A DNA stretch of 46,701 bases from Escherichia phage YDC107_1 (CP025712.1), one strand, 5' to 3'; positions 21,811 through 46,701 are shown, counted from the first letter of the stretch. The notes: a model not told the origin generated them from the sequence alone. Translations and numbers: made by a program.

Positions 21811-21823
21811 AACGCCTCTCTAA

Positions 21824-23055: not shown

Positions 23056-23137
23056 TAAATCTCATACCATTTAACTAAAAAAGGTTTTTTATACTGTATA
23101 AAATTACAGGATAAAACTCAAACTTTACGGTCAATTT

Positions 23138-23380: not shown

Positions 23381-23398
23381 TTATCCCTCCGTGACCAG

Positions 23399-23725: not shown

Positions 23726-23740
23726 AAATCCTCCTGAAAA

Positions 23741-25705: not shown

Positions 25706-25728
25706 GAATAATTCTCCTCAACGTTTAT

Positions 25729-26233: not shown

Positions 26234-26876
26234 TTAATAATGCGGTTCGATTTAAGCTCAGACATCGCGACTTAATTAAAAGCCAGCGTTCTTTATAATC
26301 TTGTCTCCAGCTATCAATAGATATATTCAGTAGAAAACTCAGATGCCTGTCCTGTTCTCTCTCATCAACTGCCTCAGCACACGTAAGTTCTGATTTAACC
26401 TGTTGTGCCGCGTAATAAATCAATTTCCGCATGGCTTTTTTCGTGGAGGCCTTCATTTTTTTAAAGCCGCCCCCCGAATGAGCAACCAGAAAATCAAGCC
26501 ATAACCACTGACAAACAATCACATCATTGTTGTAATCAGGCTTGCATCCGTAGCAATAATAAAGCCAGGCTGATTCCTCGTTATTCAACTGACCAATAGC
26601 CCTGCGCCAGCTGGCGCTCTGAAAATCAATATCAGTGAGCAACATTGATGATTGTTTAAATGTTTTCCCCTGATGGAATCTAACCGGCTCAGCAGGAACG
26701 GACACTTCGTATGAGTTATCATCCCCCACACTGATTGACCGGACTGGTTTATTGTTAAACCGTCCTGATCTACCGAGACGCATCTGCTCAAGCTGGACCT
26801 CCAGAATGCCACGCTGGCGATAATGAACATCAGCCAATGCCGTAGAGACGCAGCTGCGTATATACTCAAGCTCCAC
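26166..26876 (-). CDS. Hypothetical early protein directly downstream of cro (regulator or Q-like candidate)
   Basis: 236 aa from a GTG start with SD AAGGAG; contains CYGC…C cysteines; family not recognised. Confidence 0.5.
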   Translation of the reverse strand: MELEYIRSCVSTALADVHYRQRGILEVQLEQMRLGRSGRFNNKPVRSISVGDDNSYEVSVPAEPVRFHQGKTFKQSSMLLTDIDFQSASWRRAIGQLNNEESAWLYYCYGCKPDYNNDVIVCQWLWLDFLVAHSGGGFKKMKASTKKAMRKLIYYAAQQVKSELTCAEAVDEREQDRHLSFLLNISIDSWRQDYKERWLLIKSRCLSLNRTALLNAAEKRSEIIKRHRAGSAILPL

Positions 26877-27087
26877 GCTTACGACTCTCCTTAATCGACT
26901 GCTTTACCCGCCGAGTTGTAAAGTCACTCTTCAGCTTATAAGCAGTACGAACTTCAATATCGCTTTGCCGCAATGAAGGAATCTCTCCAGCGGTTAACCA
27001 TTGGTAAACAGCTCCGGGTGTTACACCTACCCCTGCCGCTGCTTTTTCTACACTGCCAAAATGGCGAATAAGTTCTTCTGGTTTCAT
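26866..27087 (-). CDS. cro: Cro-like HTH repressor
   Basis: 73 aa from MKPEELIRHFGSVEKAAAGVGVTPGAVYQWL; divergent from the repressor gene. Confidence 0.7.
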   Translation of the reverse strand: MKPEELIRHFGSVEKAAAGVGVTPGAVYQWLTAGEIPSLRQSDIEVRTAYKLKSDFTTRRVKQSIKESRKRGA

Positions 27088-27118
27088 GTTGTTATTATAA
27101 ACAATAAACAACAATTAA

Positions 27119-27156
27119 AGCCAGCTATAATAAATAAATTTTATAGCCAGCTATAA
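27119..27156. promoter_or_regulatory. Operator region between cro and cB: two AGCCAGCTATAA repeats
   Basis: Repeats at 27119-27130 and 27145-27156; the second lies in the near-palindrome TTATAGCCAGCTATAA; AT-rich promoter context. Confidence 0.5.
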
Positions 27157-27178
27157 GAAGATCATTTATGATTACAGT

Positions 27179-27775
27179 ATGAAAACACGAGGCGAACGAC
27201 TGAAAGCACGCCGTTTAGAGATGAAGCTGACGTTGCGAGAAGTTGCTGAGGCTGTCGATATCTCTATAGCAGGCGTCCAAAACTTAGAACGTGGCGACGT
27301 AATGCCGTCACTGGAGATAGGTATTGCCCTGGCTAAGTGCTTACGCAAGCCAGTGCATTGGGTGCTATATGGGACAGAATATGACCCTGATCGCATTCCT
27401 GTTATTGGCACAACTGAAAGTGGGCCGGATGAAGAGTGGAAGCCGGGACAGGTTCCAAATACTGAGCGATTCCTGCCATTCATCAGCCAGCGCAATACTG
27501 TGTATGCGTTAACTATCAGCAATCTTACGCAGGGAAACTATCAGCCAGGCGATTTTCTCCTGGTCGATTCTGCGCTGGAACTGGTCCCCGGCGAGGATGT
27601 TCTGGTTCGTGATACTGCAGGAAATATCACTATCCAGCGCCTGGCCCGTTTTGATGATGAAAATTACTATCTGGATGGAACAAACTCACAACGCGCCATC
27701 TTCAGGAAAAGCGATCTTGAATTTGTTCACCAAATAGTCGGAACGATCAAATCATTCATGGTTGAGGGTAGATGA
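27179..27775 (+). CDS. cB: Prophage repressor (N15 CB / lambda CI analogue): HTH plus degenerate LexA-like C-terminal domain
   Basis: 198 aa; N-terminal HTH LTLREVAEAVDISIAGVQNLERG. Confidence 0.8.
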   Translation: MKTRGERLKARRLEMKLTLREVAEAVDISIAGVQNLERGDVMPSLEIGIALAKCLRKPVHWVLYGTEYDPDRIPVIGTTESGPDEEWKPGQVPNTERFLPFISQRNTVYALTISNLTQGNYQPGDFLLVDSALELVPGEDVLVRDTAGNITIQRLARFDDENYYLDGTNSQRAIFRKSDLEFVHQIVGTIKSFMVEGR

Positions 27776-27869
27776 CTTAATACGGGGTTTATTGTTTGCT
27801 GTAAATCTGGTTTAATGCAGGGCATATGTTCTGTGGGTTGACTCAGGTTACAGCAGCAGAAAAAAGACG

Positions 27870-27905
27870 AAAAAAAACCCGAGTCGGCAAACTCGGGTCC
27901 TTTTC
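27870..27905. terminator. Bidirectional rho-independent terminator after the repressor gene
   Basis: A-run, CCCGAGT-CGGCAAA-ACTCGGG, then T-run. Confidence 0.5.
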
Positions 27906-28020
27906 AGGAAGCAGCCACAACAACGCGACAGATTCCGTCAATTCAAGATGCGTTTATTGTGGCTGCTCCTGCGGATTTTTTCAACCCGAAAAAACATAAT
28001 TCGCATGGAATGGCTAAAAA

Positions 28021-31000
28021 ATGACATTAAACGATTTCTATGCGGATCGCTTTGGCAGCGATCCGTTCTCGCTAATTGAAGCAGCACGGGATGAACTAAC
28101 CGAGCTGGCACAGATGGCTGGTATCAACTGGCCTGCCTGTTCCGACAACATCCAACTCAACCCTCGCGGGGGGGTTGAGCGTTACTCTTCATACAATAAA
28201 ACATCTCCAGAAGCTCTCGAAAAGAGCCTGAAAGGACGCGTAGAAATTTACTCCAGGCTGGAACACAGCAAAGGGATTGATTACCCGTTCATTAACTTCG
28301 TCCATAAAGGCAGCGATGCTGGCTCATGGAGCGGTTTCTCCTTCCTGTTTTCTGAATATCGCCGTGAGCAACAACGGAATAATGCGACCGTGGTCGCACA
28401 ACCGGAAGAAGAACGGGAAAGAATAGAACGTCAGGCCGAAGCACGTCGTCGCCGTGAAGAACAAAAACGAATTAATGACCTGAAAAACAACCAAATGGAC
28501 CATGAACGTTTGCTGGGATGGCTGGCATTCCACAGCGCGTGGGAACATGCTCAGGCTGAAGACGGCTCATGGCCATATGCGATTAAAAAAGGTATTCGTG
28601 ACGTTTTTAGTTCATGTGATGTGCGTCGCGTGACCAGTCACGACAGTGCGAAATGGAGCCGGGGGCCAACCACATATATGGCTATCCCTCTGGCTCACCT
28701 GGACGGTCGTTATGATGGTCGTATTGTGGGTTGGCAGCGAATCGACAAACAAGGTGGGAAATACCAGACCAGCGCAGTAACCAGCGGCGATTTCGTCGGT
28801 GCCTGCTTTGTTATCGGTGAGCTGAAAGGGGCGCAAAACATCGCTGTTACAGAAGGTTTTGCTACTGGTGCATCCATCTGGCTTGCCACGAAAAAAGATA
28901 AACGCTTTGACGCGGTGGTTGTCGCTGTATCCGCTAACAACATGGTTCATGTTGTGGAACAACTGGTAAACATGTACCCGGCGGCAAAAATCACCTGCGC
29001 ACTGGATAATGACCGGAAATCTGCCACAGAAGGAAAAGGGAATACCGGCCTGCGGACTGGCTATGAAATCTTATCGAAATTCAACGATGTCCGCTGCGTC
29101 TACCCAACTTTTGAAGACGATCCGCAAATGGAGTGCAGTGACTTCAACGACCTGCACAAACTACGTGGACTTCGTGAAACAGCACGTCAACTATTTGCAA
29201 CAGCAAACCGCCTGAAAACCGGCACTGATTTGCTATCTCTGACGCTCAACCGCCTGAAGACAATTAAGCGGGATAACCGTCGTACTTTTGCCAAAGAGCT
29301 GCTGAGAGCGGTGGATATTGGCATGCTAACCTGTCCGGTTCCTAACAGTCCGTCAGATTTGTTTAACATGTTCTGTATCGTTCTGCGTGAAATGGGGCTG
29401 GAAAATATCTATCGCGCTACGGTAAAAGACCACATTGCCCGTCGCCTGAATAAAAAATGCCGTATTGCCCAGGCTCCGCGCTCTTTCAGCGAACGCATAA
29501 CTGATCCCAATAAACGCCCTCAACATATCACCTATAAGCGTTTTGAAACTTCGGTAATGACCTATGACGTCCTGAAGTACGTGCAATCACTACAGGGGAT
29601 CGTCATCGTTCGTGCTGGTATGGGTTCCGGCAAATCTACTGGATTGTTACGACCGTTAATGCATAGCTCAGAACGCGGTATCTCTGTAGCTCACCGTGTT
29701 TCCCTTATTGGTGGCCTGTGGGAAATGATGACTGAAGGAAAAGGTGTAAAAGCCGATATCCTGCACTATCAGGACCCTGGCTATCAGGAAATGGCTCCAT
29801 ACGCCAGTAAACTGACCATCTGCATAAACTCGATTGTTAAAAACTGCTGGCAACCGTTGATGCGCCAGCACGACTATTTTGGCTTTGACGAGGCCACACA
29901 AGGGCTACGTGCCGTTCTTTCCGGTCGGGCTATGGAAAACCCAGTGGCTGTATTCAATACGCTAATTGACGCGCTGGCCAGAACGGAACAACACCCAATA
30001 ATGGTGGATGCTGATGCGAACGATCTGCTGGTTGACCTGGCTGAACTGGCTATGAAACGCCGTGAAGAACTAGGTTTACCGGCATGGCTGCAGATCCACG
30101 TAATTGAATTACCTGTTGATGTTCGCAACCGCGAAACAGGTGAGCCAATCCGGGTTTTTTATACAGAAAAAGATCGCATCATGACCGAGGTGGTGAAAGC
30201 TGTATCGGATGGCGAAAAAATCATGTTGGCCACCGACAGCTCCACCTTTGCAGAAGATGTGACCGCCACCCTGAGAATGCATTTTCCTGGTAAGAAATTT
30301 CTGTGCGTAAACCAGAAAAGCAAACAGGATGAAGAAGTCGATGCTTTTACCAACCAGCCAAAAGTAATGGTGATGAAATACGATGGACTGATCTACAGCC
30401 CGTCGATTTCCTCCGGGGTGTCATTTGAGAAAAAACATTTTGACCGTCATTTCGGCATGTTCTGCGGTGAAGTTGTGCCCAGCGACGCAGTGCAAATGCT
30501 ACGCCGCGACCGTACAGCAAAAGAATTTATTATCGGCTTTGATAAAGCTCGTGCAAAACGCGAGACTGATCCGCAAAAAATAGAACGTGCATTCGCCCAG
30601 GCATTACTTGCTACCGCAGGCATGAACGGTGAACTGACGGATGTCGTTTTCGATGGCGACCGTATATCAATGGGGGTGGCCAATACCGACTTTACCAGGA
30701 TGAAAATTAAAGCTGCCGCTATTGAAGCGTCTGCGCGTAACGACTACGCCAGCAACATGATCTGCATCATGCACAGCGACGGTTATAAGGTATCGCCATT
30801 AGCTACTGATTATGCCGCAAATGATTTTGGTAAAGAGCTGCGCAAAGAAGCGCGGGATATTGTGTGGGAACAGACGCTGGATCTGCACCTCAATACAGAG
30901 ACACCAGAAGAATCAGAGCGTGAAGAACTACTAAAAAAACGTGCGCTAACGCTTGAAGAACAGGCAAAACTTGTCCGCTGGGATATTGAGAACGAACTGA

Positions 31001-32004
31001 AACTACCGGTTGAAGAAGGCACGCTGAAATTCTATTTCGATGGTGCTCGAGACAAAATTCGCCGTTATGAAACGATGCTGCTTGATGAAGTCACAGCCCG
31101 TCGTTATGACCGTGAAGAAGCGGCTATCAATTTTACATACGCATACCGCCAGACCGGACAGTGGCAATATTTTGTGGTGACCGCGATGACACGCGAGCAG
31201 GCTGATGATGTATTCAAAGCGAAATTTCCGGGAATAATCGACTACAAGGTAAAAGCCACCCCAGCTGTTGAGGTCGGCATGCGCGGATTCTATGCGCTTA
31301 AATCAGCAACTCTCCGGCAGTATTTTATCGACTGCGGTATCGACCCTGAAACTATGACTGGCGAAGCGACGCAGGAACGCCTTAAGTTCGCTCGAGATAA
31401 TCTCATGACAGCAGAACGCCGTGACCTGTTGAATAACGTTCTGCGCATTGGTGGTTTTATGACACCAAAAGGGAAGCCTAAAGTGCCGGAAGCACTGTTT
31501 AAAAACATCTGCGACTCTCTCGGCCTAAAAACAGGAAAACGTCGCGGCAGAGATGGCGATAAGCGCCCGACATTGCGTTTTGTTGAGCCTGAGTCTGTAG
31601 CATTTATGCTTGATATTCTTACGCAACGTCAGGAGGACGGTATGACGTTGAAAGCTCGCAAGGCAGAAAAATCAACGACCGAAGTGGATCGCGATTTGTC
31701 ATTAAATATATATATGAATGGTGAAACGCGATCCACAAACACGGAGGAACAGGATCCCCCTCGTTCAGCTATATCACAGGCTTTGGCTGTATTGCCGGTG
31801 GCTGTTCCTGAGTCCTGGGCGATGAGTGCTCTGCCATCAGCCGAACTGGAATCTATCAGGGGGTGGTCAGTTGACAGCATCGCATACACGTTTGCAGCCC
31901 TTTATATGACTGAGTTTATGGATTTGCTGTCCGGTCATGAGATTAAGTTGCTGAAGGCTTTTATAGGCCCACGACATGCCAGCGATGAGTTTTGTGTAGT
32001 TTAG
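28021..32004 (+). CDS. repA: Replication protein: Toprim primase fused to a helicase/NTPase (N15 RepA / P4 alpha-like)
   Basis: 1327 aa; Toprim motifs (VTEGFATGASIW, ALDNDRKSATEGKG); Walker A GMGSGKST; Walker B-like FDEATQ. Confidence 0.9.
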   Translation: MTLNDFYADRFGSDPFSLIEAARDELTELAQMAGINWPACSDNIQLNPRGGVERYSSYNKTSPEALEKSLKGRVEIYSRLEHSKGIDYPFINFVHKGSDAGSWSGFSFLFSEYRREQQRNNATVVAQPEEERERIERQAEARRRREEQKRINDLKNNQMDHERLLGWLAFHSAWEHAQAEDGSWPYAIKKGIRDVFSSCDVRRVTSHDSAKWSRGPTTYMAIPLAHLDGRYDGRIVGWQRIDKQGGKYQTSAVTSGDFVGACFVIGELKGAQNIAVTEGFATGASIWLATKKDKRFDAVVVAVSANNMVHVVEQLVNMYPAAKITCALDNDRKSATEGKGNTGLRTGYEILSKFNDVRCVYPTFEDDPQMECSDFNDLHKLRGLRETARQLFATANRLKTGTDLLSLTLNRLKTIKRDNRRTFAKELLRAVDIGMLTCPVPNSPSDLFNMFCIVLREMGLENIYRATVKDHIARRLNKKCRIAQAPRSFSERITDPNKRPQHITYKRFETSVMTYDVLKYVQSLQGIVIVRAGMGSGKSTGLLRPLMHSSERGISVAHRVSLIGGLWEMMTEGKGVKADILHYQDPGYQEMAPYASKLTICINSIVKNCWQPLMRQHDYFGFDEATQGLRAVLSGRAMENPVAVFNTLIDALARTEQHPIMVDADANDLLVDLAELAMKRREELGLPAWLQIHVIELPVDVRNRETGEPIRVFYTEKDRIMTEVVKAVSDGEKIMLATDSSTFAEDVTATLRMHFPGKKFLCVNQKSKQDEEVDAFTNQPKVMVMKYDGLIYSPSISSGVSFEKKHFDRHFGMFCGEVVPSDAVQMLRRDRTAKEFIIGFDKARAKRETDPQKIERAFAQALLATAGMNGELTDVVFDGDRISMGVANTDFTRMKIKAAAIEASARNDYASNMICIMHSDGYKVSPLATDYAANDFGKELRKEARDIVWEQTLDLHLNTETPEESEREELLKKRALTLEEQAKLVRWDIENELKLPVEEGTLKFYFDGARDKIRRYETMLLDEVTARRYDREEAAINFTYAYRQTGQWQYFVVTAMTREQADDVFKAKFPGIIDYKVKATPAVEVGMRGFYALKSATLRQYFIDCGIDPETMTGEATQERLKFARDNLMTAERRDLLNNVLRIGGFMTPKGKPKVPEALFKNICDSLGLKTGKRRGRDGDKRPTLRFVEPESVAFMLDILTQRQEDGMTLKARKAEKSTTEVDRDLSLNIYMNGETRSTNTEEQDPPRSAISQALAVLPVAVPESWAMSALPSAELESIRGWSVDSIAYTFAALYMTEFMDLLSGHEIKLLKAFIGPRHASDEFCVV
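28383..28398. repeat. 16-bp core TGCGACCGTGGTCGCA, copy 5, inside repA
   Basis: Outer bases not complementary (16 of 18); mirrored copy at 45080-45097. Confidence 0.5.
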
Positions 32005-32021
32005 AGGGTAGAAGCGTGGGA

Positions 32022-32288
32022 ATGATGCAAGAGTGCCTCGTTTTGATTGAAGGGTATGATCCGTATGTTGTTAACGTCAGCAGAATGGATACTGGCTATA
32101 GCGACTACAAAACTGGTCGTGAACTGCCGTTCACCATCATCAGGATGAATAGCTTTGGCGATGATGATGCTGTTTATTGCTGTATAGCCAGCGATAAAAA
32201 CATGGAAGACCGGACAGATGAAGCCCGTATGCTATTGAGGAAATATAAGGTAAAGCCGTTATCAGAGAATAACGCTGAGAGGGGTTAA
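32022..32288 (+). CDS. Hypothetical protein
   Basis: From ATG MMQECLVLIEGYDP (ORF-track start 31992 is TTG). Confidence 0.45.
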   Translation: MMQECLVLIEGYDPYVVNVSRMDTGYSDYKTGRELPFTIIRMNSFGDDDAVYCCIASDKNMEDRTDEARMLLRKYKVKPLSENNAERG

Positions 32289-32290
32289 AA

Positions 32291-32686
32291 ATGGCAGTTC
32301 AATCATACAAATACGAATCCCCTTTGGATAAGGGATACATTCGTATCAAGTTAAGTCGTTCTCAGCATAAGGCTATTTTTAAGGTAAGGAAAATTCGCAT
32401 ATTGGATGCGTATGCGTATTACTACAACGGTGAAAATGTTGTTGTTGAACACTTTCTTGCACGATGGTTTGTAGCTCTGATTTTTGTCCCTCTCCTGTTA
32501 ATTGGTACTTTTGTGGATGGTTTTCCTAGTACATGGCGGGAGATAAAGAAAGGCCTATTCCCGCGTAAGTACGGCAGATTTTCGCAAGATAGCTGGCGAG
32601 TTATACCTGGTAAACATTCTGTGGATGAGCAGCCGATTGTTGATTACTGGTTGAAGCATATGGCTGATGCTAAAAAAGTTGATTGA
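32291..32686 (+). CDS. Hypothetical membrane protein
   Basis: 131 aa with SD GAGAGGGG; TM segment WFVALIFVPLLLIGTFV. Confidence 0.5.
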   Translation: MAVQSYKYESPLDKGYIRIKLSRSQHKAIFKVRKIRILDAYAYYYNGENVVVEHFLARWFVALIFVPLLLIGTFVDGFPSTWREIKKGLFPRKYGRFSQDSWRVIPGKHSVDEQPIVDYWLKHMADAKKVD

Positions 32687-32704
32687 GTTGTGGAAGGAGT
32701 ATTT

Positions 32705-32929
32705 ATGAACTGTAACAAAAATGAAGAAACTCGCCTGGTTTGGACGGTAGTAATCGGAGATAAAGAGGGCGGTGAAGAGCCTCATTTTGATTATTCTGTG
32801 GCTTTGCAGGCTCTCATCCTTGAAGCGCAGAGATACCAACAAGAGATGCAGAAGAACCCTCAACTGGAACCTCGACCAATTGGCCTATTCTGCGAGCGAG
32901 TATCAGCGGCGGAACTCCCTGATATCTGA
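32705..32929 (+). CDS. Hypothetical small acidic protein
   Basis: MNCNKNEETRLVWTVVIG…; SD GGAAGGA. Confidence 0.45.
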   Translation: MNCNKNEETRLVWTVVIGDKEGGEEPHFDYSVALQALILEAQRYQQEMQKNPQLEPRPIGLFCERVSAAELPDI

Positions 32930-33120
32930 TGCCCTCCAACAGCTGATCAGGTTCTGATCAGTTAGTAAAGCAAACTATAAAAACACCTGTCCCCGTGACT
33001 GGTCACGGGGTAAAATGTCTTTGCAAATTATTGACGTGTGCGTCGTTTTGACGGTAAAGTTACTTCGCTGCGGTAAATCCCGTAGCCGGGACTCTCAACC
33101 CCGAAATCCGAACGACGCAC

Positions 33121-33143
33121 AACACGCGCCAGCGTGTTTTTTT
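33121..33143 (+). terminator. Rho-independent terminator ending a short untranslated transcript upstream of the anti-repressor operon
   Basis: AACACGC-GCCA-GCGTGTT followed by a T-run. Confidence 0.45.
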
Positions 33144-33309
33144 GTGTGTATGAGCCTGCGCATATCCGAATTATGGTGGCTCAGGTGGGGCAGCCGAAAG
33201 GCTGGCCGGTGTCGTTTGGGCCGGTGTTGAGAACCCCGCTTGGGCTACCACCCCATAGAGATTCTCAACTCTGGTGGTAGCACTGTTTTACCAAACAAGA
33301 GTGCATACC

Positions 33310-33474
33310 ATGTTCAAATTCAAATTTGCGGCAGTCGTTCGCACAGACAAAAAGTCACACATCCATCATCTTTCCACCATCGCGTCATCTGAACGGGAAG
33401 CTCGTCGCCAGTTCGCCAGCCGGTTTGTCCTGGTATTGTCTGCCCGTATTCCGGTGCGCGAGGTGGCTGCATGA
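33310..33474 (+). CDS. Small protein, first gene of the anti-repressor operon (Icd-like position)
   Basis: 54 aa from MFKFKFAAVVRTDKK. Confidence 0.35.
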   Translation: MFKFKFAAVVRTDKKSHIHHLSTIASSEREARRQFASRFVLVLSARIPVREVAA

Positions 33475-33704
33475 ATCAGGTAAAAATGAACACTGTTGGC
33501 CTGCTGGAATCGTTGGATGAACGTCTGGCTCAGGTCTATGCGCTTGTGTCATCAGCCCATCGTACAGTCTCCAGTTGTGAGGCGTCGATTTATCTCTCAG
33601 AAGCCGGGAAGCTCCTTCAAATCGCGTGTGAGTTGACACACAAAGCACAGGGGTATTCAGCATCTCTCTCGTCGCAATTGCAGCACAATAAGGAGGCCAA
33701 ATGA
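33471..33704 (+). CDS. Hypothetical protein (anti-repressor operon)
   Basis: 77 aa, SD GAGGTGG, ATGA-coupled to neighbours. Confidence 0.45.
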   Translation: MNQVKMNTVGLLESLDERLAQVYALVSSAHRTVSSCEASIYLSEAGKLLQIACELTHKAQGYSASLSSQLQHNKEAK

Positions 33705-34477
33705 GCGCGTTAGCTGTATTTTCGTTTCAGGAAGAGCATCAGGTTCGTGTAGTGATGATTGATAGCGATCCGTGGTTTGTTGCATCTGATGTGTGTATGG
33801 CGGCGGGTATTGATTCTACGGCCATTAGAAAGTTGGATGAGGACGAAAAGGGTCTGCATTTAATGCAGACCCCTGGCGGATACCAGAATGTTTCAATCAT
33901 CAAGGAGTCAGGTCTATACACCCTAATCCTCCGCTGCCGTGACGCGGTGAAGCAAGGCACAACAGCTTGGCGGTTTCGCAAATGGGTAACGAACGAAGTC
34001 TTGCCCTCTATTCGCAAAAATGGAGAGTACGTTTACGTTGAGCCAGAGCCAATGCGAGCAGCAGAGCCGTTGAACTGGAGGCAGAAAGAGTATCTGCGAG
34101 GGCTGATTAACGATATTGCACAAAGTTTTCAATACCGAAATGCCTGGATTAGCGGTGTATGGTTGGCTTTGCGTCGGGCGTGTCGTAATCCATCCCCGAA
34201 CCCCATAACTGTTGATGATTTGCCAGCAATAACGGCAGAACTGCGACGGATTTTGACGGCTGCTGAGTCGGCATTGGGGAACATGCGCACGTATGAACGA
34301 GAGTTGTTGCGTGATGTTGTTCGTGGTGGTAGGCGGAGTATGTCGTGTGGTGATTTGCCCATCACCGATATCAACTCTGATCTGGAAAAGGCGTTACCCG
34401 CGCATTTTGAACTGGCAGTTCAAAAACTTGAGCAGTTGTCCGCGCAGCTAAAGCCAGCAGAAATCACCAATAAATAG
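33701..34477 (+). CDS. ant: Anti-repressor with Bro-N domain
   Basis: 258 aa; N-terminus FSFQEEHQVRVVMIDSDPWFVASDVCMAAGI… typical of Bro-N/Ant; SD AGGAGG. Confidence 0.75.
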   Translation: MSALAVFSFQEEHQVRVVMIDSDPWFVASDVCMAAGIDSTAIRKLDEDEKGLHLMQTPGGYQNVSIIKESGLYTLILRCRDAVKQGTTAWRFRKWVTNEVLPSIRKNGEYVYVEPEPMRAAEPLNWRQKEYLRGLINDIAQSFQYRNAWISGVWLALRRACRNPSPNPITVDDLPAITAELRRILTAAESALGNMRTYERELLRDVVRGGRRSMSCGDLPITDINSDLEKALPAHFELAVQKLEQLSAQLKPAEITNK

Positions 34478-34649
34478 GGTTGGCCAGCCCGAATTGATGC
34501 CCTTCTTAGTGAGGGGAAGCCTCGCAGTCTGGGCGGTGATGTCTGTGGTTGCAGCCGCGTTTCCTCCGTTACTTCTGCCCTTTGCAGGGGGCAGGCGAGG
34601 CAGGCCACATAACAAGGCACCGATTAATTCGGTGCCTTTAACGTATGCT

Positions 34650-36551: not shown

Positions 36552-36714
36552 CTTTCCTCTCCTGATTATCCGCTCGGATTATCGTAACACAATTTGAGAA
36601 TAAGATAACTAATAACGCGTTAACTTAGGCACAAACTAACAGAACACAATAACGGATAATAAATAAAAACACAATATCGGAACGTTAAAATTTGTTCCTT
36701 GACTTTGTTCTGAA

Positions 36715-36770
36715 AATCAGCACATAATTTCCCATTATACGCGCGTATAATGGGAAATTATGTGCTGATT
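36715..36770. other. telRL-like telomere resolution site; centre of dyad symmetry between 36742 and 36743
   Basis: AATCAGCACATAATTT-CCCATTATACGCGCGTATAATGGG-AAATTATGTGCTGATT, same architecture as N15 telRL as I recall. Confidence 0.8.
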
Positions 36771-36933
36771 TTCAGAACAAAGTCAAGGAACAAATTTTAA
36801 CGTTCCGATATTGTGTTTTTATTTATTATCCGTTATTGTGTTCTGTTAGTTTGTGCCTAAGTTAACGCGTTATTAGTTATCTTATTCTCAAATTGTGTTA
36901 CGATAATCCGAGCGGATAATCAGGAGAGGAAAG

Positions 36934-38833: not shown

Positions 38834-39005
38834 AGCATACGTTAAAGGCACCGAATTAATCGGTGCCTTGTTATGTGGCCTGCCTCGCCTGCCCCCTGCA
38901 AAGGGCAGAAGTAACGGAGGAAACGCGGCTGCAACCACAGACATCACCGCCCAGACTGCGAGGCTTCCCCTCACTAAGAAGGGCATCAATTCGGGCTGGC
39001 CAACC

Positions 39006-39782
39006 CTATTTATTGGTGATTTCTGCTGGCTTTAGCTGCGCGGACAACTGCTCAAGTTTTTGAACTGCCAGTTCAAAATGCGCGGGTAACGCCTTTTCCA
39101 GATCAGAGTTGATATCGGTGATGGGCAAATCACCACACGACATACTCCGCCTACCACCACGAACAACATCACGCAACAACTCTCGTTCATACGTGCGCAT
39201 GTTCCCCAATGCCGACTCAGCAGCCGTCAAAATCCGTCGCAGTTCTGCCGTTATTGCTGGCAAATCATCAACAGTTATGGGGTTCGGGGATGGATTACGA
39301 CACGCCCGACGCAAAGCCAACCATACACCGCTAATCCAGGCATTTCGGTATTGAAAACTTTGTGCAATATCGTTAATCAGCCCTCGCAGATACTCTTTCT
39401 GCCTCCAGTTCAACGGCTCTGCTGCTCGCATTGGCTCTGGCTCAACGTAAACGTACTCTCCATTTTTGCGAATAGAGGGCAAGACTTCGTTCGTTACCCA
39501 TTTGCGAAACCGCCAAGCTGTTGTGCCTTGCTTCACCGCGTCACGGCAGCGGAGGATTAGGGTGTATAGACCTGACTCCTTGATGATTGAAACATTCTGG
39601 TATCCGCCAGGGGTCTGCATTAAATGCAGACCCTTTTCGTCCTCATCCAACTTTCTAATGGCCGTAGAATCAATACCCGCCGCCATACACACATCAGATG
39701 CAACAAACCACGGATCGCTATCAATCATCACTACACGAACCTGATGCTCTTCCTGAAACGAAAATACAGCTAACGCGCTCAT
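39006..39782 (-). CDS. Mirror copy of the Bro-N anti-repressor gene (intact)
   Basis: Identical 258-aa translation to 33701..34477. Confidence 0.5.
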   Translation of the reverse strand: MSALAVFSFQEEHQVRVVMIDSDPWFVASDVCMAAGIDSTAIRKLDEDEKGLHLMQTPGGYQNVSIIKESGLYTLILRCRDAVKQGTTAWRFRKWVTNEVLPSIRKNGEYVYVEPEPMRAAEPLNWRQKEYLRGLINDIAQSFQYRNAWISGVWLALRRACRNPSPNPITVDDLPAITAELRRILTAAESALGNMRTYERELLRDVVRGGRRSMSCGDLPITDINSDLEKALPAHFELAVQKLEQLSAQLKPAEITNK

Positions 39783-40012
39783 TTGGCCTCCTTATTGTGC
39801 TGCAATTGCGACGAGAGAGATGCTGAATACCCCTGTGCTTTGTGTGTCAACTCACACGCGATTTGAAGGAGCTTCCCGGCTTCTGAGAGATAAATCGACG
39901 CCTCACAACTGGAGACTGTACGATGGGCTGATGACACAAGCGCATAGACCTGAGCCAGACGTTCATCCAACGATTCCAGCAGGCCAACAGTGTTCATTTT
40001 TACCTGATTCAT
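39779..40012 (-). CDS. Mirror copy of the 77-aa anti-repressor-operon gene
   Basis: Identical translation to 33471..33704. Confidence 0.4.
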   Translation of the reverse strand: MNQVKMNTVGLLESLDERLAQVYALVSSAHRTVSSCEASIYLSEAGKLLQIACELTHKAQGYSASLSSQLQHNKEAK

Positions 40013-40173
40013 GCAGCCACCTCGCGCACCGGAATACGGGCAGACAATACCAGGACAAACCGGCTGGCGAACTGGCGACGAGCTTCCCGTTCAGATGACG
40101 CGATGGTGGAAAGATGATGGATGTGTGACTTTTTGTCTGTGCGAACGACTGCCGCAAATTTGAATTTGAACAT
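40009..40173 (-). CDS. Mirror copy of the Icd-position small gene
   Basis: Identical translation to 33310..33474. Confidence 0.3.
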   Translation of the reverse strand: MFKFKFAAVVRTDKKSHIHHLSTIASSEREARRQFASRFVLVLSARIPVREVAA

Positions 40174-40553
40174 GGTATGCACTCTTGTTTGGTAAAACAG
40201 TGCTACCACCAGAGTTGAGAATCTCTATGGGGTGGTAGCCCAAGCGGGGTTCTCAACACCGGCCCAAACGACACCGGCCAGCCTTTCGGCTGCCCCACCT
40301 GAGCCACCATAATTCGGATATGCGCAGGCTCATACACACAAAAAAACACGCTGGCGCGTGTTGTGCGTCGTTCGGATTTCGGGGTTGAGAGTCCCGGCTA
40401 CGGGATTTACCGCAGCGAAGTAACTTTACCGTCAAAACGACGCACACGTCAATAATTTGCAAAGACATTTTACCCCGTGACCAGTCACGGGGACAGGTGT
40501 TTTTATAGTTTGCTTTACTAACTGATCAGAACCTGATCAGCTGTTGGAGGGCA

Positions 40554-40778
40554 TCAGATATCAGGGAGTTCCGCCGCTGATACTCGCTCGCAGAATAGGC
40601 CAATTGGTCGAGGTTCCAGTTGAGGGTTCTTCTGCATCTCTTGTTGGTATCTCTGCGCTTCAAGGATGAGAGCCTGCAAAGCCACAGAATAATCAAAATG
40701 AGGCTCTTCACCGCCCTCTTTATCTCCGATTACTACCGTCCAAACCAGGCGAGTTTCTTCATTTTTGTTACAGTTCAT
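40554..40778 (-). CDS. Mirror copy of the small acidic protein gene
   Basis: Identical translation to 32705..32929. Confidence 0.35.
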   Translation of the reverse strand: MNCNKNEETRLVWTVVIGDKEGGEEPHFDYSVALQALILEAQRYQQEMQKNPQLEPRPIGLFCERVSAAELPDI

Positions 40779-40796
40779 AAATACTCCTTCCACAAC

Positions 40797-41191
40797 TCAA
40801 TCAACTTTTTTAGCATCAGCCATATGCTTCAACCAGTAATCAACAATCGGCTGCTCATCCACAGAATGTTTACCAGGTATAACTCGCCAGCTATCTTGCG
40901 AAAATCTGCCGTACTTACGCGGGAATAGGCCTTTCTTTATCTCCCGCCATGTACTAGGAAAACCATCCACAAAAGTACCAATTAACAGGAGAGGGACAAA
41001 ATCAGAGCTACAAACCATCGTGCAAGAAAGTGTTCAACAACAACATTTTCACCGTTGTAGTAATACGCATACGCATCCAATATGCGAATTTTCCTTACCT
41101 TAAAAATAGCCTTATGCTGAGAACGACTTAACTTGATACGAATGTATCCCTTATCCAAAGGGGATTCGTATTTGTATGATTGAACTGCCAT
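40797..41191 (-). pseudogene. Mirror copy of the membrane-protein gene, frameshifted
   Basis: T5 to T4 contraction splits it into ORFs 40797..41018 and 40982..41191. Confidence 0.6.
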
Positions 41192-41193
41192 TT

Positions 41194-41460
41194 TTAACCC
41201 CTCTCAGCGTTATTCTCTGATAACGGCTTTACCTTATATTTCCTCAATAGCATACGGGCTTCATCTGTCCGGTCTTCCATGTTTTTATCGCTGGCTATAC
41301 AGCAATAAACAGCATCATCATCGCCAAAGCTATTCATCCTGATGATGGTGAACGGCAGTTCACGACCAGTTTTGTAGTCGCTATAGCCAGTATCCATTCT
41401 GCTGACGTTAACAACATACGGATCATACCCTTCAATCAAAACGAGGCACTCTTGCATCAT
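41194..41460 (-). CDS. Mirror copy of the hypothetical gene 32022..32288
   Basis: Identical translation. Confidence 0.35.
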   Translation of the reverse strand: MMQECLVLIEGYDPYVVNVSRMDTGYSDYKTGRELPFTIIRMNSFGDDDAVYCCIASDKNMEDRTDEARMLLRKYKVKPLSENNAERG

Positions 41461-41477
41461 TCCCACGCTTCTACCCT

Positions 41478-44400
41478 CTAAACTACACAAAACTCATCGC
41501 TGGCATGTCGTGGGCCTATAAAAGCCTTCAGCAACTTAATCTCATGACCGGACAGCAAATCCATAAACTCAGTCATATAAAGGGCTGCAAACGTGTATGC
41601 GATGCTGTCAACTGACCACCCCCTGATAGATTCCAGTTCGGCTGATGGCAGAGCACTCATCGCCCAGGACTCAGGAACAGCCACCGGCAATACAGCCAAA
41701 GCCTGTGATATAGCTGAACGAGGGGGATCCTGTTCCTCCGTGTTTGTGGATCGCGTTTCACCATTCATATATATATTTAATGACAAATCGCGATCCACTT
41801 CGGTCGTTGATTTTTCTGCCTTGCGAGCTTTCAACGTCATACCGTCCTCCTGACGTTGCGTAAGAATATCAAGCATAATGCTACAGACTCAGGCTCAACA
41901 AAACGCAATGTCGGGCGCTTATCGCCATCTCTGCCGCGACGTTTTCCTGTTTTTAGGCCGAGAGAGTCGCAGATGTTTTTAAACAGTGCTTCCGGCACTT
42001 TAGGCTTCCCTTTTGGTGTCATAAAACCACCAATGCGCAGAACGTTATTCAACAGGTCACGGCGTTCTGCTGTCATGAGATTATCTCGAGCGAACTTAAG
42101 GCGTTCCTGCGTCGCTTCGCCAGTCATAGTTTCAGGGTCGATACCGCAGTCGATAAAATACTGCCGGAGAGTTGCTGATTTAAGCGCATAGAATCCGCGC
42201 ATGCCGACCTCAACAGCTGGGGTGGCTTTTACCTTGTAGTCGATTATTCCCGGAAATTTCGCTTTGAATACATCATCAGCCTGCTCGCGTGTCATCGCGG
42301 TCACCACAAAATATTGCCACTGTCCGGTCTGGCGGTATGCGTATGTAAAATTGATAGCCGCTTCTTCACGGTCATAACGACGGGCTGTGACTTCATCAAG
42401 CAGCATCGTTTCATAACGGCGAATTTTGTCTCGAGCACCATCGAAATAGAATTTCAGCGTGCCTTCTTCAACCGGTAGTTTCAGTTCGTTCTCAATATCC
42501 CAGCGGACAAGTTTTGCCTGTTCTTCAAGCGTTAGCGCACGTTTTTTTAGTAGTTCTTCACGCTCTGATTCTTCTGGTGTCTCTGTATTGAGGTGCAGAT
42601 CCAGCGTCTGTTCCCACACAATATCCCGCGCTTCTTTGCGCAGCTCTTTACCAAAATCATTTGCGGCATAATCAGTAGCTAATGGCGATACCTTATAACC
42701 GTCGCTGTGCATGATGCAGATCATGTTGCTGGCGTAGTCGTTACGCGCAGACGCTTCAATAGCGGCAGCTTTAATTTTCATCCTGGTAAAGTCGGTATTG
42801 GCCACCCCCATTGATATACGGTCGCCATCGAAAACGACATCCGTCAGTTCACCGTTCATGCCTGCGGTAGCAAGTAATGCCTGGGCGAATGCACGTTCTA
42901 TTTTTTGCGGATCAGTCTCGCGTTTTGCACGAGCTTTATCAAAGCCGATAATAAATTCTTTTGCTGTACGGTCGCGGCGTAGCATTTGCACTGCGTCGCT
43001 GGGCACAACTTCACCGCAGAACATGCCGAAATGACGGTCAAAATGTTTTTTCTCAAATGACACCCCGGAGGAAATCGACGGGCTGTAGATCAGTCCATCG
43101 TATTTCATCACCATTACTTTTGGCTGGTTGGTAAAAGCATCGACTTCTTCATCCTGTTTGCTTTTCTGGTTTACGCACAGAAATTTCTTACCAGGAAAAT
43201 GCATTCTCAGGGTGGCGGTCACATCTTCTGCAAAGGTGGAGCTGTCGGTGGCCAACATGATTTTTTCGCCATCCGATACAGCTTTCACCACCTCGGTCAT
43301 GATGCGATCTTTTTCTGTATAAAAAACCCGGATTGGCTCACCTGTTTCGCGGTTGCGAACATCAACAGGTAATTCAATTACGTGGATCTGCAGCCATGCC
43401 GGTAAACCTAGTTCTTCACGGCGTTTCATAGCCAGTTCAGCCAGGTCAACCAGCAGATCGTTCGCATCAGCATCCACCATTATTGGGTGTTGTTCCGTTC
43501 TGGCCAGCGCGTCAATTAGCGTATTGAATACAGCCACTGGGTTTTCCATAGCCCGACCGGAAAGAACGGCACGTAGCCCTTGTGTGGCCTCGTCAAAGCC
43601 AAAATAGTCGTGCTGGCGCATCAACGGTTGCCAGCAGTTTTTAACAATCGAGTTTATGCAGATGGTCAGTTTACTGGCGTATGGAGCCATTTCCTGATAG
43701 CCAGGGTCCTGATAGTGCAGGATATCGGCTTTTACACCTTTTCCTTCAGTCATCATTTCCCACAGGCCACCAATAAGGGAAACACGGTGAGCTACAGAGA
43801 TACCGCGTTCTGAGCTATGCATTAACGGTCGTAACAATCCAGTAGATTTGCCGGAACCCATACCAGCACGAACGATGACGATCCCCTGTAGTGATTGCAC
43901 GTACTTCAGGACGTCATAGGTCATTACCGAAGTTTCAAAACGCTTATAGGTGATATGTTGAGGGCGTTTATTGGGATCAGTTATGCGTTCGCTGAAAGAG
44001 CGCGGAGCCTGGGCAATACGGCATTTTTTATTCAGGCGACGGGCAATGTGGTCTTTTACCGTAGCGCGATAGATATTTTCCAGCCCCATTTCACGCAGAA
44101 CGATACAGAACATGTTAAACAAATCTGACGGACTGTTAGGAACCGGACAGGTTAGCATGCCAATATCCACCGCTCTCAGCAGCTCTTTGGCAAAAGTACG
44201 ACGGTTATCCCGCTTAATTGTCTTCAGGCGGTTGAGCGTCAGAGATAGCAAATCAGTGCCGGTTTTCAGGCGGTTTGCTGTTGCAAATAGTTGACGTGCT
44301 GTTTCACGAAGTCCACGTAGTTTGTGCAGGTCGTTGAAGTCACTGCACTCCATTTGCGGATCGTCTTCAAAAGTTGGGTAGACGCAGCGGACATCGTTGA

Positions 44401-45458
44401 ATTTCGATAAGATTTCATAGCCAGTCCGCAGGCCGGTATTCCCTTTTCCTTCTGTGGCAGATTTCCGGTCATTATCCAGTGCGCAGGTGATTTTTGCCGC
44501 CGGGTACATGTTTACCAGTTGTTCCACAACATGAACCATGTTGTTAGCGGATACAGCGACAACCACCGCGTCAAAGCGTTTATCTTTTTTCGTGGCAAGC
44601 CAGATGGATGCACCAGTAGCAAAACCTTCTGTAACAGCGATGTTTTGCGCCCCTTTCAGCTCACCGATAACAAAGCAGGCACCGACGAAATCGCCGCTGG
44701 TTACTGCGCTGGTCTGGTATTTCCCACCTTGTTGTCGATTCGCTGCCAACCCACAATACGACCATCATAACGACCGTCCAGGTGAGCCAGAGGATAGCCA
44801 TATATGTGGTTGGCCCCCGGCTCCATTTCGCACTGTCGTGACTGGTCACGCGACGCACATCACATGAACTAAAAACGTCACGAATACCTTTTTTAATCGC
44901 ATATGGCCATGAGCCGTCTTCAGCCTGAGCATGTTCCCACGCGCTGTGGAATGCCAGCCATCCCAGCAAACGTTCATGGTCCATTTGGTTGTTTTTCAGG
45001 TCATTAATTCGTTTTTGTTCTTCACGGCGACGACGTGCTTCGGCCTGACGTTCTATTCTTTCCCGTTCTTCTTCCGGTTGTGCGACCACGGTCGCATTAT
45101 TCCGTTGTTGCTCACGGCGATATTCAGAAAACAGGAAGGAGAAACCGCTCCATGAGCCAGCATCGCTGCCTTTATGGACGAAGTTAATGAACGGGTAATC
45201 AATCCCTTTGCTGTGTTCCAGCCTGGAGTAAATTTCTACGCGTCCTTTCAGGCTCTTTTCGAGAGCTTCTGGAGATGTTTTATTGTATGAAGAGTAACGC
45301 TCAACCCCCCCGCGAGGGTTGAGTTGGATGTTGTCGGAACAGGCAGGCCAGTTGATACCAGCCATCTGTGCCAGCTCGGTTAGTTCATCCCGTGCTGCTT
45401 CAATTAGCGAGAACGGATCGCTGCCAAAGCGATCCGCATAGAAATCGTTTAATGTCAT
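41478..45458 (-). pseudogene. Mirror copy of repA, broken by at least three 1-bp contractions
   Basis: Fragments 41478..41876, 41837..44749 and 44661..45458; contractions TTT to TT, AAA to AA and CCC to CC checked by eye. Confidence 0.7.
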
Positions 45459-45703
45459 TTTTTAGCCATTCCATGCGAATTATGTTTTTTCGGGTTGAAA
45501 AAATCCGCAGGAGCAGCCACAATAAACGCATCTTGAATTGACGGAATCTGTCGCGTTGTTGTGGCTGCTTCCTGAAAAGGACCCGAGTTTGCCGACTCGG
45601 GTTTTTTTTCGTCTTTTTTCTGCTGCTGTAACCTGAGTCAACCCACAGAACATATGCCCTGCATTAAACCAGATTTACAGCAAACAATAAACCCCGTATT
45701 AAG

Positions 45704-46299
45704 TCATCTACCCTCAACCATGAATGATTTGATCGTTCCGACTATTTGGTGAACAAATTCAAGATCGCTTTTCCTGAAGATGGCGCGTTGTGAGTTTGTT
45801 CCATCCAGATAGTAATTTTCATCATCAAAACGGGCCAGGCGCTGGATAGTGATATTTCCTGCAGTATCACGAACCAGAACATCCTCGCCGGGGACCAGTT
45901 CCAGCGCAGAATCGACCAGGAGAAAATCGCCTGGCTGATAGTTTCCCTGCGTAAGATTGCTGATAGTTAACGCATACACAGTATTGCGCTGGCTGATGAA
46001 TGGCAGGAATCGCTCAGTATTTGGAACCTGTCCCGGCTTCCACTCTTCATCCGGCCCACTTTCAGTTGTGCCAATAACAGGAATGCGATCAGGGTCATAT
46101 TCTGTCCATATAGCACCCAATGCACTGGCTTGCGTAAGCACTTAGCCAGGGCAATACCTATCTCCAGTGACGGCATTACGTCGCCACGTTCTAAGTTTTG
46201 GACGCCTGCTATAGAGATATCGACAGCCTCAGCAACTTCTCGCAACGTCAGCTTCATCTCTAAACGGCGTGCTTTCAGTCGTTCGCCTCGTGTTTTCAT
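45704..46299 (-). pseudogene. Mirror copy of the cB repressor gene, frameshifted
   Basis: GGG to GG contraction; fragments 45704..46141 and 45967..46299. Confidence 0.65.
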
Positions 46300-46389
46300 A
46301 CTGTAATCATAAATGATCTTCTTATAGCTGGCTATAAAATTTATTTATTATAGCTGGCTTTAATTGTTGTTTATTGTTTATAATAACAA

Positions 46390-46611
46390 CATGAACCAGA
46401 AGAACTTATTCGCCATTTTGGCAGTGTAGAAAAAGCAGCGGCAGGGGTAGGTGTAACACCCGGAGCTGTTTACCAATGGTTAACCGCTGGAGAGATTCCT
46501 TCATTGCGGCAAAGCGATATTGAAGTTCGTACTGCTTATAAGCTGAAGAGTGACTTTACAACTCGGCGGGTAAAGCAGTCGATTAAGGAGAGTCGTAAGC
46601 GTGGAGCTTGA
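46390..46611 (+). pseudogene. Mirror copy of cro, frameshifted in the fourth codon
   Basis: ATGAAACCAG becomes ATGAACCAG, giving a stop after 12 codons. Confidence 0.6.
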
Positions 46612-46701
46612 GTATATACGCAGCTGCGTCTCTACGGCATTGGCTGATGTTCATTATCGCCAGCGTGGCATTCTGGAGGTCCAGCTTGAGCAGATGCGTC
46701 T
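46601..46701 (+). CDS. Mirror copy of the 236-aa early gene, partial (runs off the window end)
   Basis: GTG-started VELEYIRSCVSTALADVHYRQRGILEVQLEQMR matches the N-terminus of 26166..26876. Confidence 0.35.
   Translation, partial: MELEYIRSCVSTALADVHYRQRGILEVQLEQMR

Follow-up and report, generated by a model that had tools for sequence, protein, structure and literature searches.

The window, i.e., the whole stretch of 46,701 nt analysed here (Escherichia phage YDC107_1, CP025712.1), is very probably, as judged from its sequence, a long-read-type assembly that has read through the telL hairpin of an N15-like E. coli linear plasmid-prophage ("telomere phage"). The true molecule is predicted to end at 36742, and the right arm of the window to be redundant, i.e., not a second gene set. 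The underlying biology is already known and so is, in general, the artefact.

When gaps are allowed, positions 26776-36742 (9,967 nt) pair with the reverse complement of 36743-46701 (9,959 nt) at 99.92% identity, with no substitution and eight single-base gaps. A chance match is ruled out for such a 10-kb pairing free of substitutions. No spacer separates the two arms: the axis is flanked by C36742 and G36743, the two central bases of TATACGC/GCGTATA. An earlier note had described a spacer-less, perfect palindrome with arms 26784-36742 and 36743 to the window end. The duplication, its right arm and the absence of a spacer are retained, while the left boundary is corrected to 26776; the palindrome is perfect as to substitutions only, since eight one-base gaps interrupt it and ungapped perfection is limited to 2 x 368 nt. 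An ungapped palindrome over 26784-46701 was also tried and failed past 368 nt: complementarity is perfect for 368 nt on either side of 36742/36743 and at random level farther out, which is explained by the eight one-base indels of the gapped alignment. As the window stops where the right arm stops, how far the duplication extends outwards is dictated by where the data end; the limit 26776 is not a biological boundary, because it is located within the gene for the Q antiterminator. A protein-capped linear plasmid with terminal inverted repeats was excluded as a candidate (no unique DNA between the arms, protelomerase present). The features of the window are collected in Table 1.

Table 1. Position of the features of the window (counted from its first base), with the eight differences between the arms.
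Feature	Position	Strand	Remarks
Lambda-J-like host-specificity gene	1-1804	-	Left end of the window inside the gene; ORF truncated at 311
Q antiterminator gene	26166-26876	-	Phage_antiter_Q, E = 4e-84; contains the duplication limit 26776
Left arm, genuine telL-proximal 9,967 bp of the linear plasmid-prophage	26776-36742	+	Ends at the telomere
cB/CI-like prophage repressor	27179-27775	+	HTH_3 above cut-off; Peptidase_S24 weak, below Pfam cut-off
repA, N15-type primase/helicase replication protein	28021-32004	+	1,327 aa, intact; Herpes_ori_bp above cut-off; Toprim_3 weak, below Pfam cut-off
Bro-N domain protein, antirepressor-like	33701-34477	+	Pfam domain
telN, protelomerase	34650-36551	-	633 aa, intact; Pfam domains, 77% identity to N15 TelN
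Sole perfect ungapped palindrome	36375-37110		2 x 368 nt
56-bp tel core, telL then its own complement (telL-telL' / "telLL")	36715-36770	.	48/56 identical to N15 telRL
22-bp telO-like centre CCATTATACGCGCGTATAATGG	36732-36753	.	22/22 vs. N15 and vs. related E. coli plasmid
Right arm, fold-back copy	36743-46701	-	9,959 nt, complementary strand of the left arm; reaches the last base of the window
telN mirror copy, broken	37140-38833	+	ORFs 37140-37430 and 37493-38833
repA mirror copy, broken	41478-45458	-	ORFs 44661-45458, 41837-44749 and 41478-41876
Contraction T6 to 5	~37110		Left-arm counterpart 36374
Contraction T3 to 2	~37392		Left-arm counterpart 36091
Contraction T5 to 4	~41001		Left-arm counterpart 32481
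Contraction T3 to 2	~41878		Left-arm counterpart 31603
Contraction A3 to 2	~44733		Left-arm counterpart 28747
Contraction C3 to 2	~44793		Left-arm counterpart 28686
Contraction G3 to 2	~46107		Left-arm counterpart 27371
Contraction T3 to 2	~46395		Left-arm counterpart 27082

The axis of this spacer-less inverted repeat falls exactly on the cleavage centre of the resolvase: in a gap-free alignment, it coincides with the centre of N15 telRL, annotated "cut at 24802/3". It is localized 191 bp upstream of the start codon of telN, so that a palindromic tel target with a telO centre adjoins the protelomerase gene. The core of 56 bp is self-complementary at 56/56 positions in the window, vs. 52/56 in native N15 telRL and 48/56 in native telRL of CP148365. 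The claim of the earlier note that the axis is in a tel core is borne out by the identity with N15 telRL (48/56, central 22/22) and by the adjoining intact TelN gene. The hairpin tip, which is the true end of the molecule as predicted from these features, lies between 36742 and 36743.

In the left arm, which contains part of Q, the genes of the cB-like repressor, RepA, the Bro-N protein and TelN, and small ORFs, no ORF is broken. The four domains of TelN (TelK_N, TelK_muzzle, ResT-TelK_cat and TelK_stirrup) all exceed the Pfam cut-off (E = 1e-25 to 1e-50), and Y424 aligns with the catalytic Y425 of N15, i.e., the catalytic tyrosine is conserved in the alignment. A protelomerase of the TelN/TelK type with its catalytic tyrosine is thus predicted; the exact protein is present on at least 23 NCBI contigs. 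The telL arm also has the RepA-type primase/helicase and phage repressor module of N15-type replicons. The homologues of repA are annotated "plasmid replication protein, CyRepA1 family" (relatives have the same 1,327-aa product), that of the repressor cI or XRE.

At the other side, the window begins inside gene J, the ORF of which is cut at 311 by the loss of single nucleotides at two isolated sites (about 19-20 and 398). sopAB, which adjoins tel in close relatives, is absent from the window. Roughly 9-11 kb are missing at the telR end, namely the remainder of J together with lom, the tail fibres, sopB and sopA. It must be noticed that this missing segment is about as long as the fold-back arm (9.96 kb), making the contig about one genome long; this is treated as a coincidence. 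Because the telR end is missing, the replicon is to be treated as linear and incomplete.

The eight differences between the arms (8/8) are homopolymer contractions, all of them in the right arm (positions ~37110-46395). At each of the eight sites the run length of the left arm is that of 12/12 relatives, i.e., two relatives and ten independent, near-identical NCBI assemblies. Compared with these ten contigs, the left arm has 3-93 mismatches and no gap in 7/10, and the right arm always has exactly eight gaps more than the left arm. The differences are thus errors of the consensus type rather than evolutionary divergence. The copies of telN and repA in the right arm are frameshifted because of these homopolymer deletions, and the larger fragment of the telN mirror copy is devoid of the TelK_N and muzzle domains. 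That the ORFs of the right arm are redundant, as had been proposed, is upheld by the eight private homopolymer deletions, which are its only differences, and by the ten independent assemblies, which side with the left arm. Different consensus errors in the two arms suggest that these were called independently, which would be unexpected from a de Bruijn assembly. We infer an origin from long reads and a consensus assembler, with a lower or ambiguous read support of the right arm. Classic homopolymer errors are usually met in runs longer than 3 bases, although a low-coverage consensus does yield such deletions. p13TMH22-2 (CP019258) was dropped as a reference for error calling, this record being itself full of single-base indels.

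Taken at face value, two copies of which one is frameshifted could also be a heritable duplex inverted duplication (2 x 10 kb), the right arm of which decays to pseudogenes. This reading is hardly credible: true divergence would bring substitutions, and in both arms, whereas there are no substitutions and the contractions (8/8) are in one arm. Moreover, its outer boundary would be the end of the window, in the middle of the Q gene, and independent assemblies of the element stop at the axis. In E. coli, SbcCD is known to cleave long perfect palindromes, and such a duplication would be prone to this cleavage (Eykelenboom et al. 2008, as listed among the references of PMC12624138). A duplex telLL is also a substrate of TelN and would be resolved (PMC12624138).

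Independent assemblies of the replicon terminate at the axis. Among ten independent NCBI contigs encoding the identical TelN, nine stop between -22 and +63 nt from the axis, and the overshoots past it (23, 38 and 63 nt) are 100% palindromic; the tenth has a native telR/telL junction. Short-read contigs of the same replicon also end or turn back at the axis, and five RefSeq records end at it or at most 93 bp from it. The end of the molecule at 36742, put forward in the earlier note, is supported by the stops of the nine contigs and by their palindromic overshoots.

The presence of a tel core with telN adjoining, as in N15 telRL, would also be expected if the axis were the native telRL of the phage in its circular or virion form, with neighbouring phage DNA at its right side. 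The other flank should then be telR and sopA. However, the native telR/telL junctions of relatives continue into the sopA/sopB side and not into a mirror copy, and their match to the window ends 21-27 nt beyond the axis. Native cores are, moreover, imperfect palindromes (48-52 of 56), whereas that of the window is 56/56 and is followed by 10 kb of further mirror symmetry. The native telRL reading has practically no probability and was rejected as refuted by the flanks of the relatives and by the symmetry of the core. The same junctions, running to the sopA side with no mirror copy, agree with the earlier view that the palindrome is not native duplex DNA.

The fold-back is also found in public records. 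The 5,426 complete E. coli genomes surveyed (RefSeq) include 17 related telL-bearing records, and 6/17 have a telL fold-back with two mirror protelomerase genes: pG749_3 (CP014491), RL465 plasmid III (LT906558), p13TMH22-2 (CP019258), pAMSC3 (CP031108), APEC E123 (CP126957) and LR883007. The arms were measured in four of them (CP014491, LT906558, CP019258 and CP031108): they are 7.6-13.6 kb long, each reaches the end of the record and their differences are almost only indels. The mirror arm of the window likewise continues up to its last base, 46701, with no biological outer boundary. Where inner and outer arms are distinct (CP014491, LT906558 and CP019258), RepA or TelN is fragmented in the outer copies; CP031108 is a palindrome throughout, and RepA is fragmented in one of its two mirror copies. 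Fold-backs at telR were also observed, in CP014491 (positions 1-13175) and in pEC21Z151-14K (CP101203), which is entirely a fold-back.

The public fold-back records belong to the same replicon family as the window: they share its axis and are 95-99% identical around tel. Their annotation includes both mirror protelomerase genes, and RepA or TelN is fragmented in one of the mirror copies. They differ from the window by their arms (6.6-13.6 kb), and some of them fold back at both telomeres; two are a palindrome only. Among the five fold-back records that were opened, four are labelled circular and LT906558 linear. No record identical to the window was found in PLSDB (the best matches are 95-99% identical), and the listing for complete E. 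coli genomes has none in which high coverage goes with an identity of 99% or more, four records of at least 99% aside. An error-bearing 60-mer of the window had no match among viral contigs, and the 80-nt telLL junction none in GTDB genome contigs or JGI metagenome contigs.

Long-read data are known to contain fold-back chimeras as one class of artefact. A chimera of the library or of the sequencing (template switching or strand invasion), unrelated to a hairpin telomere, would be in line with the error-rich right arm but is very improbable. Arbitrary positions would be expected for it, whereas the axis is base-exact at the centre of tel (a chance of ~1 in 36,742 positions) and recurs in six other public assemblies, with an equivalent one at telR; short-read contigs of the replicon also halt or turn at it. 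Three mechanisms had been left side by side in the earlier note. Of these, hairpin read-through has much the strongest support, and an axis that is both base-exact and recurrent all but excludes a random fold-back chimera.

The course of hairpin read-through may be described as follows: (i) in the cell, the replicon would be a linear duplex, the ends of which are closed by TelN as covalent hairpins; (ii) the end fragment would thus be a single continuous strand, and a read would follow its top strand to telL; (iii) the read would turn at the hairpin tip (36742/36743) and return along the bottom strand; (iv) the assembler would write this walk as a duplex, genuine up to 36742 and then reverse complement until it stops at 46701; (v) the right arm would have the poorer consensus support, with eight homopolymer under-calls.

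A hairpin read-through and a strand of a duplex telLL junction have identical base sequences and are inseparable by sequence. Such a junction belongs to the N15-type replication intermediate, in which the daughters, once bidirectional replication has gone past the hairpin, stay head-to-head until TelN resolves them, and its expected sequence (telL, then its complement, no spacer) is the observed one; telLL and telRR sites processed by TelN are indeed part of N15 biology (PMC12624138). This origin is nevertheless unlikely. The junction is transient, the TelN gene is intact and every resting molecule has hairpins, so that hairpin reads should far outnumber it. The mirror copy ends after 9,959 nt instead of being genome-wide, an argument limited by the end of the window, and consensus errors on one side only suggest that this arm has thin support. 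The 6/17 unrelated assemblies with arms at the ends of the records fit a systematic effect of reads or assembly better than a rare intermediate. It is also improbable that, besides hairpin read-through, unresolved duplex telL-telL head-to-head junctions were unusually abundant in the strain (e.g., by replication outrunning TelN). If it were so, long-read assembly would have caught N15-type replication intermediates in vivo, and the public fold-backs would carry quantitative information on the resolution of telomeres.

Under the hairpin read-through reading the biology is little changed: the contig is confirmed as an N15-like telomere phage-plasmid with its left telomere at 36742. The right 9,959 bases are to be trimmed, and the broken "telN" and "repA" ORFs must not count as pseudogenes or duplications. 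The artefact is uncorrected in RefSeq and PLSDB: it concerns 6/17 related "complete" E. coli plasmids, most of them labelled circular and up to 75 kb in size, and two "plasmids" (14.5 and 27.2 kb) are a telomere fold-back alone. Because of such records, plasmid sizes and gene counts are overestimated and the circular/linear statistics of telomere phages are distorted. A spacer-less palindrome at the end of a contig, adjoining a protelomerase gene, pinpoints the hairpin tip to a single base.

In the literature examined, no published account of this artefact was found specifically for N15-like E. coli plasmids; the general phenomenon is described for Rhizobiaceae. Long reads pass through the covalently closed hairpin ends of linear plasmids and chromids in that family, and are classed as "hairpin" by assembly_topology.py, the recommended fix being trimming at the loop (PMC13293297). 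The passage of reads beyond the physical end onto the opposite strand is the one proposed for the window, and a spacer-less inverted repeat at the contig end and an encoded protelomerase are found there too. On the contrary, the reads were seen and the records trimmed by the authors in that case, whereas an untrimmed contig alone, of an enterobacterial N15-like phage-plasmid, is considered here. The telLL/telRR intermediates of N15, which are TelN substrates (PMC12624138), should have the same junction sequence as the window; however, they are transient duplexes in a head-to-head dimer and are not required by anything in the window, the mirror copy of which is short and error-rich.

N15 itself (Ravinvirus N15) is like the window in several respects: (i) the two TelN proteins are 77% identical and share the four domains and the catalytic Tyr; (ii) the 22 bp of telO are identical and the 56-bp core is so at 48/56; (iii) telN adjoins telL, and is followed by the repressor and the RepA primase/helicase gene, with lambda-like structural genes beyond. 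It differs by its native telR/telL junction, telL being joined to its own complement in the window. The lineage of the window is nevertheless distinct from N15 (~75-78% DNA identity across only 30% of the arm), and its nearest relatives are E. coli phage PhiR46_1 and a set of plasmids from E. coli, Shigella and E. fergusonii, with 95-98% identity.

The gapped self-alignment of the window pairs 26776-36742 (left arm) with the reverse complement of 36743-46701 (right arm) at 99.92% identity, with no substitution and eight single-base gaps, and there is no spacer between the arms. The spacer-less inverted duplication described in the earlier note for 26784-36742 and 36743 to the end is thus real, except that its left limit is at 26776. 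Its description as a perfect palindrome over the whole length has to be abandoned: eight single-base gaps are present, and without gaps the two sides of the axis (36742/36743) are perfectly complementary over no more than 368 nt each (36375-37110), beyond which the pairing is random. The right arm runs to the final base of the window (46701) and the left limit is within the gene of the Q antiterminator (26166-26876); thus the extent of the duplication is set by the end of the data and not by a biological boundary.

The sequence context of the axis is TATACGC/GCGTATA. In a gap-free alignment the axis is the exact centre of the annotated N15 telRL repeat (24775-24830, «cut at 24802/3»), i.e., it does lie, as had been proposed, at the centre of a telRL-like core. 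The central 22 bp are identical to those of N15 (22/22) and the 56-bp core to a lesser extent (48/56). The core of the window is entirely self-complementary (56/56), as expected for telL joined to its own complement, whereas the native telRL cores of N15 (52/56) and CP148365 (48/56) are imperfect palindromes because their L and R halves differ. A native telRL site at the axis is refuted by the flanks. The tel core is polymorphic among elements with identical TelN, at 36730-36733 and 36752-36755 of the window (~10-13 nt from the axis): GGGAAATT in the window, GGTGAATT in several NCBI contigs and GGGGAATT in others. This polymorphism suggests that TelN would tolerate variation in the bases just outside the 22-bp centre.

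The TelN of the window has 77% identity to that of N15 and conserves the tyrosine that aligns with N15 Y425. The remainder of the left arm encodes a cB/CI-like repressor, a 1,327-aa RepA primase/helicase, small ORFs and a Bro-N protein, i.e., a typical early/plasmid module of N15-type elements. Leftward are found lysis, methylase, toxin-antitoxin and lambda-like head and tail genes. The GC content changes in a sharp step, from 55-60% in the lambda-like head/tail module (~1-16000) to 43-50% in the N15-type early/plasmid module (~17000-36742), which fits a mosaic origin of the two halves of the window; it falls to 34-37% around the telomere. The early region also contains, at 22211-22809 (+), a Gp49-like (RelE/HigB-type) toxin and an HTH antitoxin, annotated in relatives as a type II toxin-antitoxin system and probably a plasmid-maintenance addiction module. 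A direct repeat of 172 bp (93% identity; 17388-17559 and 18339-18509) flanks and overlaps an ORF of 285 aa (17680-18537, -) which has no Pfam match; both have the small terminase gene on one side and the lysis module on the other, close to the expected position of cos.

All eight differences between the arms are in the right arm, where homopolymers are one base shorter (six from 3 to 2, one from 5 to 4 and one from 6 to 5). Most closely related are E. coli phage PhiR46_1, the record of which terminates at an annotated «telL site», and plasmids of E. coli, Shigella and E. fergusonii (95-98% identity). At the eight sites, the run lengths of PhiR46_1 and pG749_3 are those of the left arm. The exact TelN protein is present on at least 23 NCBI contigs, and ten of these, which span the whole arm, were compared with the window (3-93 substitutions each). 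Seven of them align to the left arm without gaps, and the right arm has, relative to the left, exactly eight extra gaps against all ten. Relatives consistently match the left arm, thus the deletions are private to the right arm of this assembly. They split the right-arm copy of telN into two ORFs (the larger without the TelK_N and muzzle domains) and that of repA into three, while the left-arm genes are intact and equal in length to those of relatives. Zero substitutions with one-sided homopolymer indels are the signature of consensus error, not of evolutionary divergence. The right-arm ORFs are redundant copies of the left-arm genes, as was anticipated, and should not be annotated. Since the arms differ in their errors, they were consensus-called separately, which, we infer, is more in line with an overlap/consensus (long-read) assembler than with a de Bruijn assembly; the read technology is likewise presumed, as is a weaker support of the right arm. 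It must be added that, with respect to three relatives, the window lacks a single nucleotide at each of two isolated sites of its left end (~19-20 and 398), probably a consensus error at a thinly covered contig end; the deletion at 398 frameshifts the lambda-J-like host-specificity gene (311-1804, -), whose ORF stops at 311.

Independent assemblies also stop at the axis. Six of the ten contigs end 11-22 nt before it. Three run past it by 23, 38 and 63 nt, and these overshoots, which are 100% reverse complement, are miniature versions of the fold-back of the window. The last has a native junction, the opposite flank being telR DNA. The proposal that the true molecule ends at 36742 is thus borne out by nine contigs out of ten, which end close to the axis, and by the palindromic nature of the overshoots. 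That the two arms coexist as a genuine, stable inverted duplication is very improbable: substitutions are absent, errors are in one arm only, TelN acts on such a site and independent assemblies terminate at the axis. Moreover, long palindromes are cleaved via SbcCD in E. coli.

A 1,200-nt query centred on the axis was compared with 5,426 complete E. coli genomes and matched 18 plasmid records. One of them, CP101203, matches the tel core only (telR fold-back), leaving 17 records with telL: (i) five with a match ending 21-27 nt beyond the axis, among which NZ_CP148365.1, upon inspection, proceeds into sopA/sopB (native telRL), and the other four are, to judge from the end of the match, presumably native junctions as well; (ii) five whose end coincides with the axis or is at most 93 nt away; (iii) six with the full palindrome and two mirror protelomerase genes; (iv) L004 (NZ_CP165740.1, 46,703 bp), in which the telL flank is joined to the telR flank at ~23550-23577 and the ~50-bp core is absent, as if the assembly had joined two ends that each lacked the terminal ~25 nt.

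The six fold-back records are NZ_CP014491.1, NZ_LT906558.1, NZ_CP019258.1, NZ_CP031108.1, NZ_CP126957.1 and NZ_LR883007.1 (loci L006-L010). Arms were measured in the first four, with counts of differences halved, as the self-alignment of a palindrome registers each difference twice.

Protelomerase gene of the window and fold-back arms of public records
Feature	Record length	Position or extent	Strand	Remarks
telN, 633 aa		34650-36551	-	all four protelomerase Pfam domains; start codon 191 bp inside the axis
pAMSC3 (CP031108)	27,197 bp	entire record one telL palindrome		2 mismatches, 6 indels
RL465 plasmid III (LT906558)	61,544 bp	9,239-nt arm from record start		0 mismatches, 6 indels
p13TMH22-2 (CP019258)	75,007 bp	13,278-nt arm to record end		0 mismatches, 18 indels
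pG749_3 (CP014491), telL arm	62,572 bp	7,606 nt, one record end		1 mismatch, 2 indels
pG749_3 (CP014491), telR arm	62,572 bp	6,587 nt, other record end		1 mismatch, 11 indels

In all measured records the arm reaches the record end, and pG749_3 is folded back at both telomeres. As in the window, mirror copies of RepA and TelN are fragmented: in CP014491, LT906558 and CP019258, where an inner and an outer arm can be distinguished, it is the outer copy that has fragmented RepA and/or TelN annotations, and one of the two mirror RepA copies of pAMSC3 is fragmented. Three of these four records (27-75 kb) are labelled circular and one linear. The «circular plasmid» pEC21Z151-14K (CP101203, L003) is, from 1 to 14498, a perfect telR-telR palindrome of 14,498 bp with two copies each of sopA, sopB and the tail fibre genes; the same strain also yields a 46-kb record starting near telL. 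Two deposited «circular plasmids», CP101203 (14,498 bp) and CP031108 (27,197 bp), are thus entirely telomere palindrome and do not represent replicons of their own. In PLSDB, several records (77-81 kb, e.g., CP088738 and CP088810) look similar and are candidate fold-backs. The recurrence at both telomeres fits a property of the way hairpin-ended molecules are read and assembled. A random fold-back chimera would not give an axis that is base-exact and recurrent, and is very improbable.

The fold-back is thus very probably a long-read assembly artefact due to read-through of the telL hairpin, one of the interpretations already put forward from the sequence and now supported by the tel-centred axis, the one-sided errors, the independent ends and the public recurrence. 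A linear duplex with hairpins at both ends is, topologically, one circular strand. On a fragment with one open and one hairpin end, a read proceeds from the open end to the tip and then back along the complement, the natural telomere serving like a hairpin adapter; written as duplex, such a walk gives the spacer-less palindrome observed. [quoted passage not shown] An identical base sequence is expected in reads that come from the duplex telLL junction of a replication intermediate of the N15 type, and TelN processes telLL and telRR sites (PMC12624138). With an intact telN this junction is expected to be a minority source, and it leaves unaccounted for that arms are error-rich and always stop at contig ends; it is therefore an unlikely origin.

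The true sequence is 1-36742, with telL at its right end. Base 1 maps within the J gene of complete relatives (position 14476 of L004, whose telR is near 23,551), thus ~9-11 kb of the telR-proximal end is missing; by comparison with these relatives, this part would comprise the rest of J, lom, tail fibres, sopB, sopA and telR. The full replicon is expected to be ~46-48 kb, with a telR flank like AGCTATAAATATTACACCAATAGAGAACACTAATCAAGAACATATCAGCAC. The closest relative found, L011 (DAPRER010000016.1, 47,853 bp), has 3 mismatches over the 10-kb arm. At positions 1-313 this draft contig contains a native telR/telL junction, to be explained either by circular or lytic forms in that culture or by the assembler having linked the two ends via their common core.

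What is mildly new concerns database curation only: of the related «complete» E. coli plasmids in RefSeq, a third have an uncorrected fold-back, mostly under a circular label, and two records consist solely of fold-back. The hairpin telomere biology of N15-type elements and the rounding of a hairpin by long reads are both already known.
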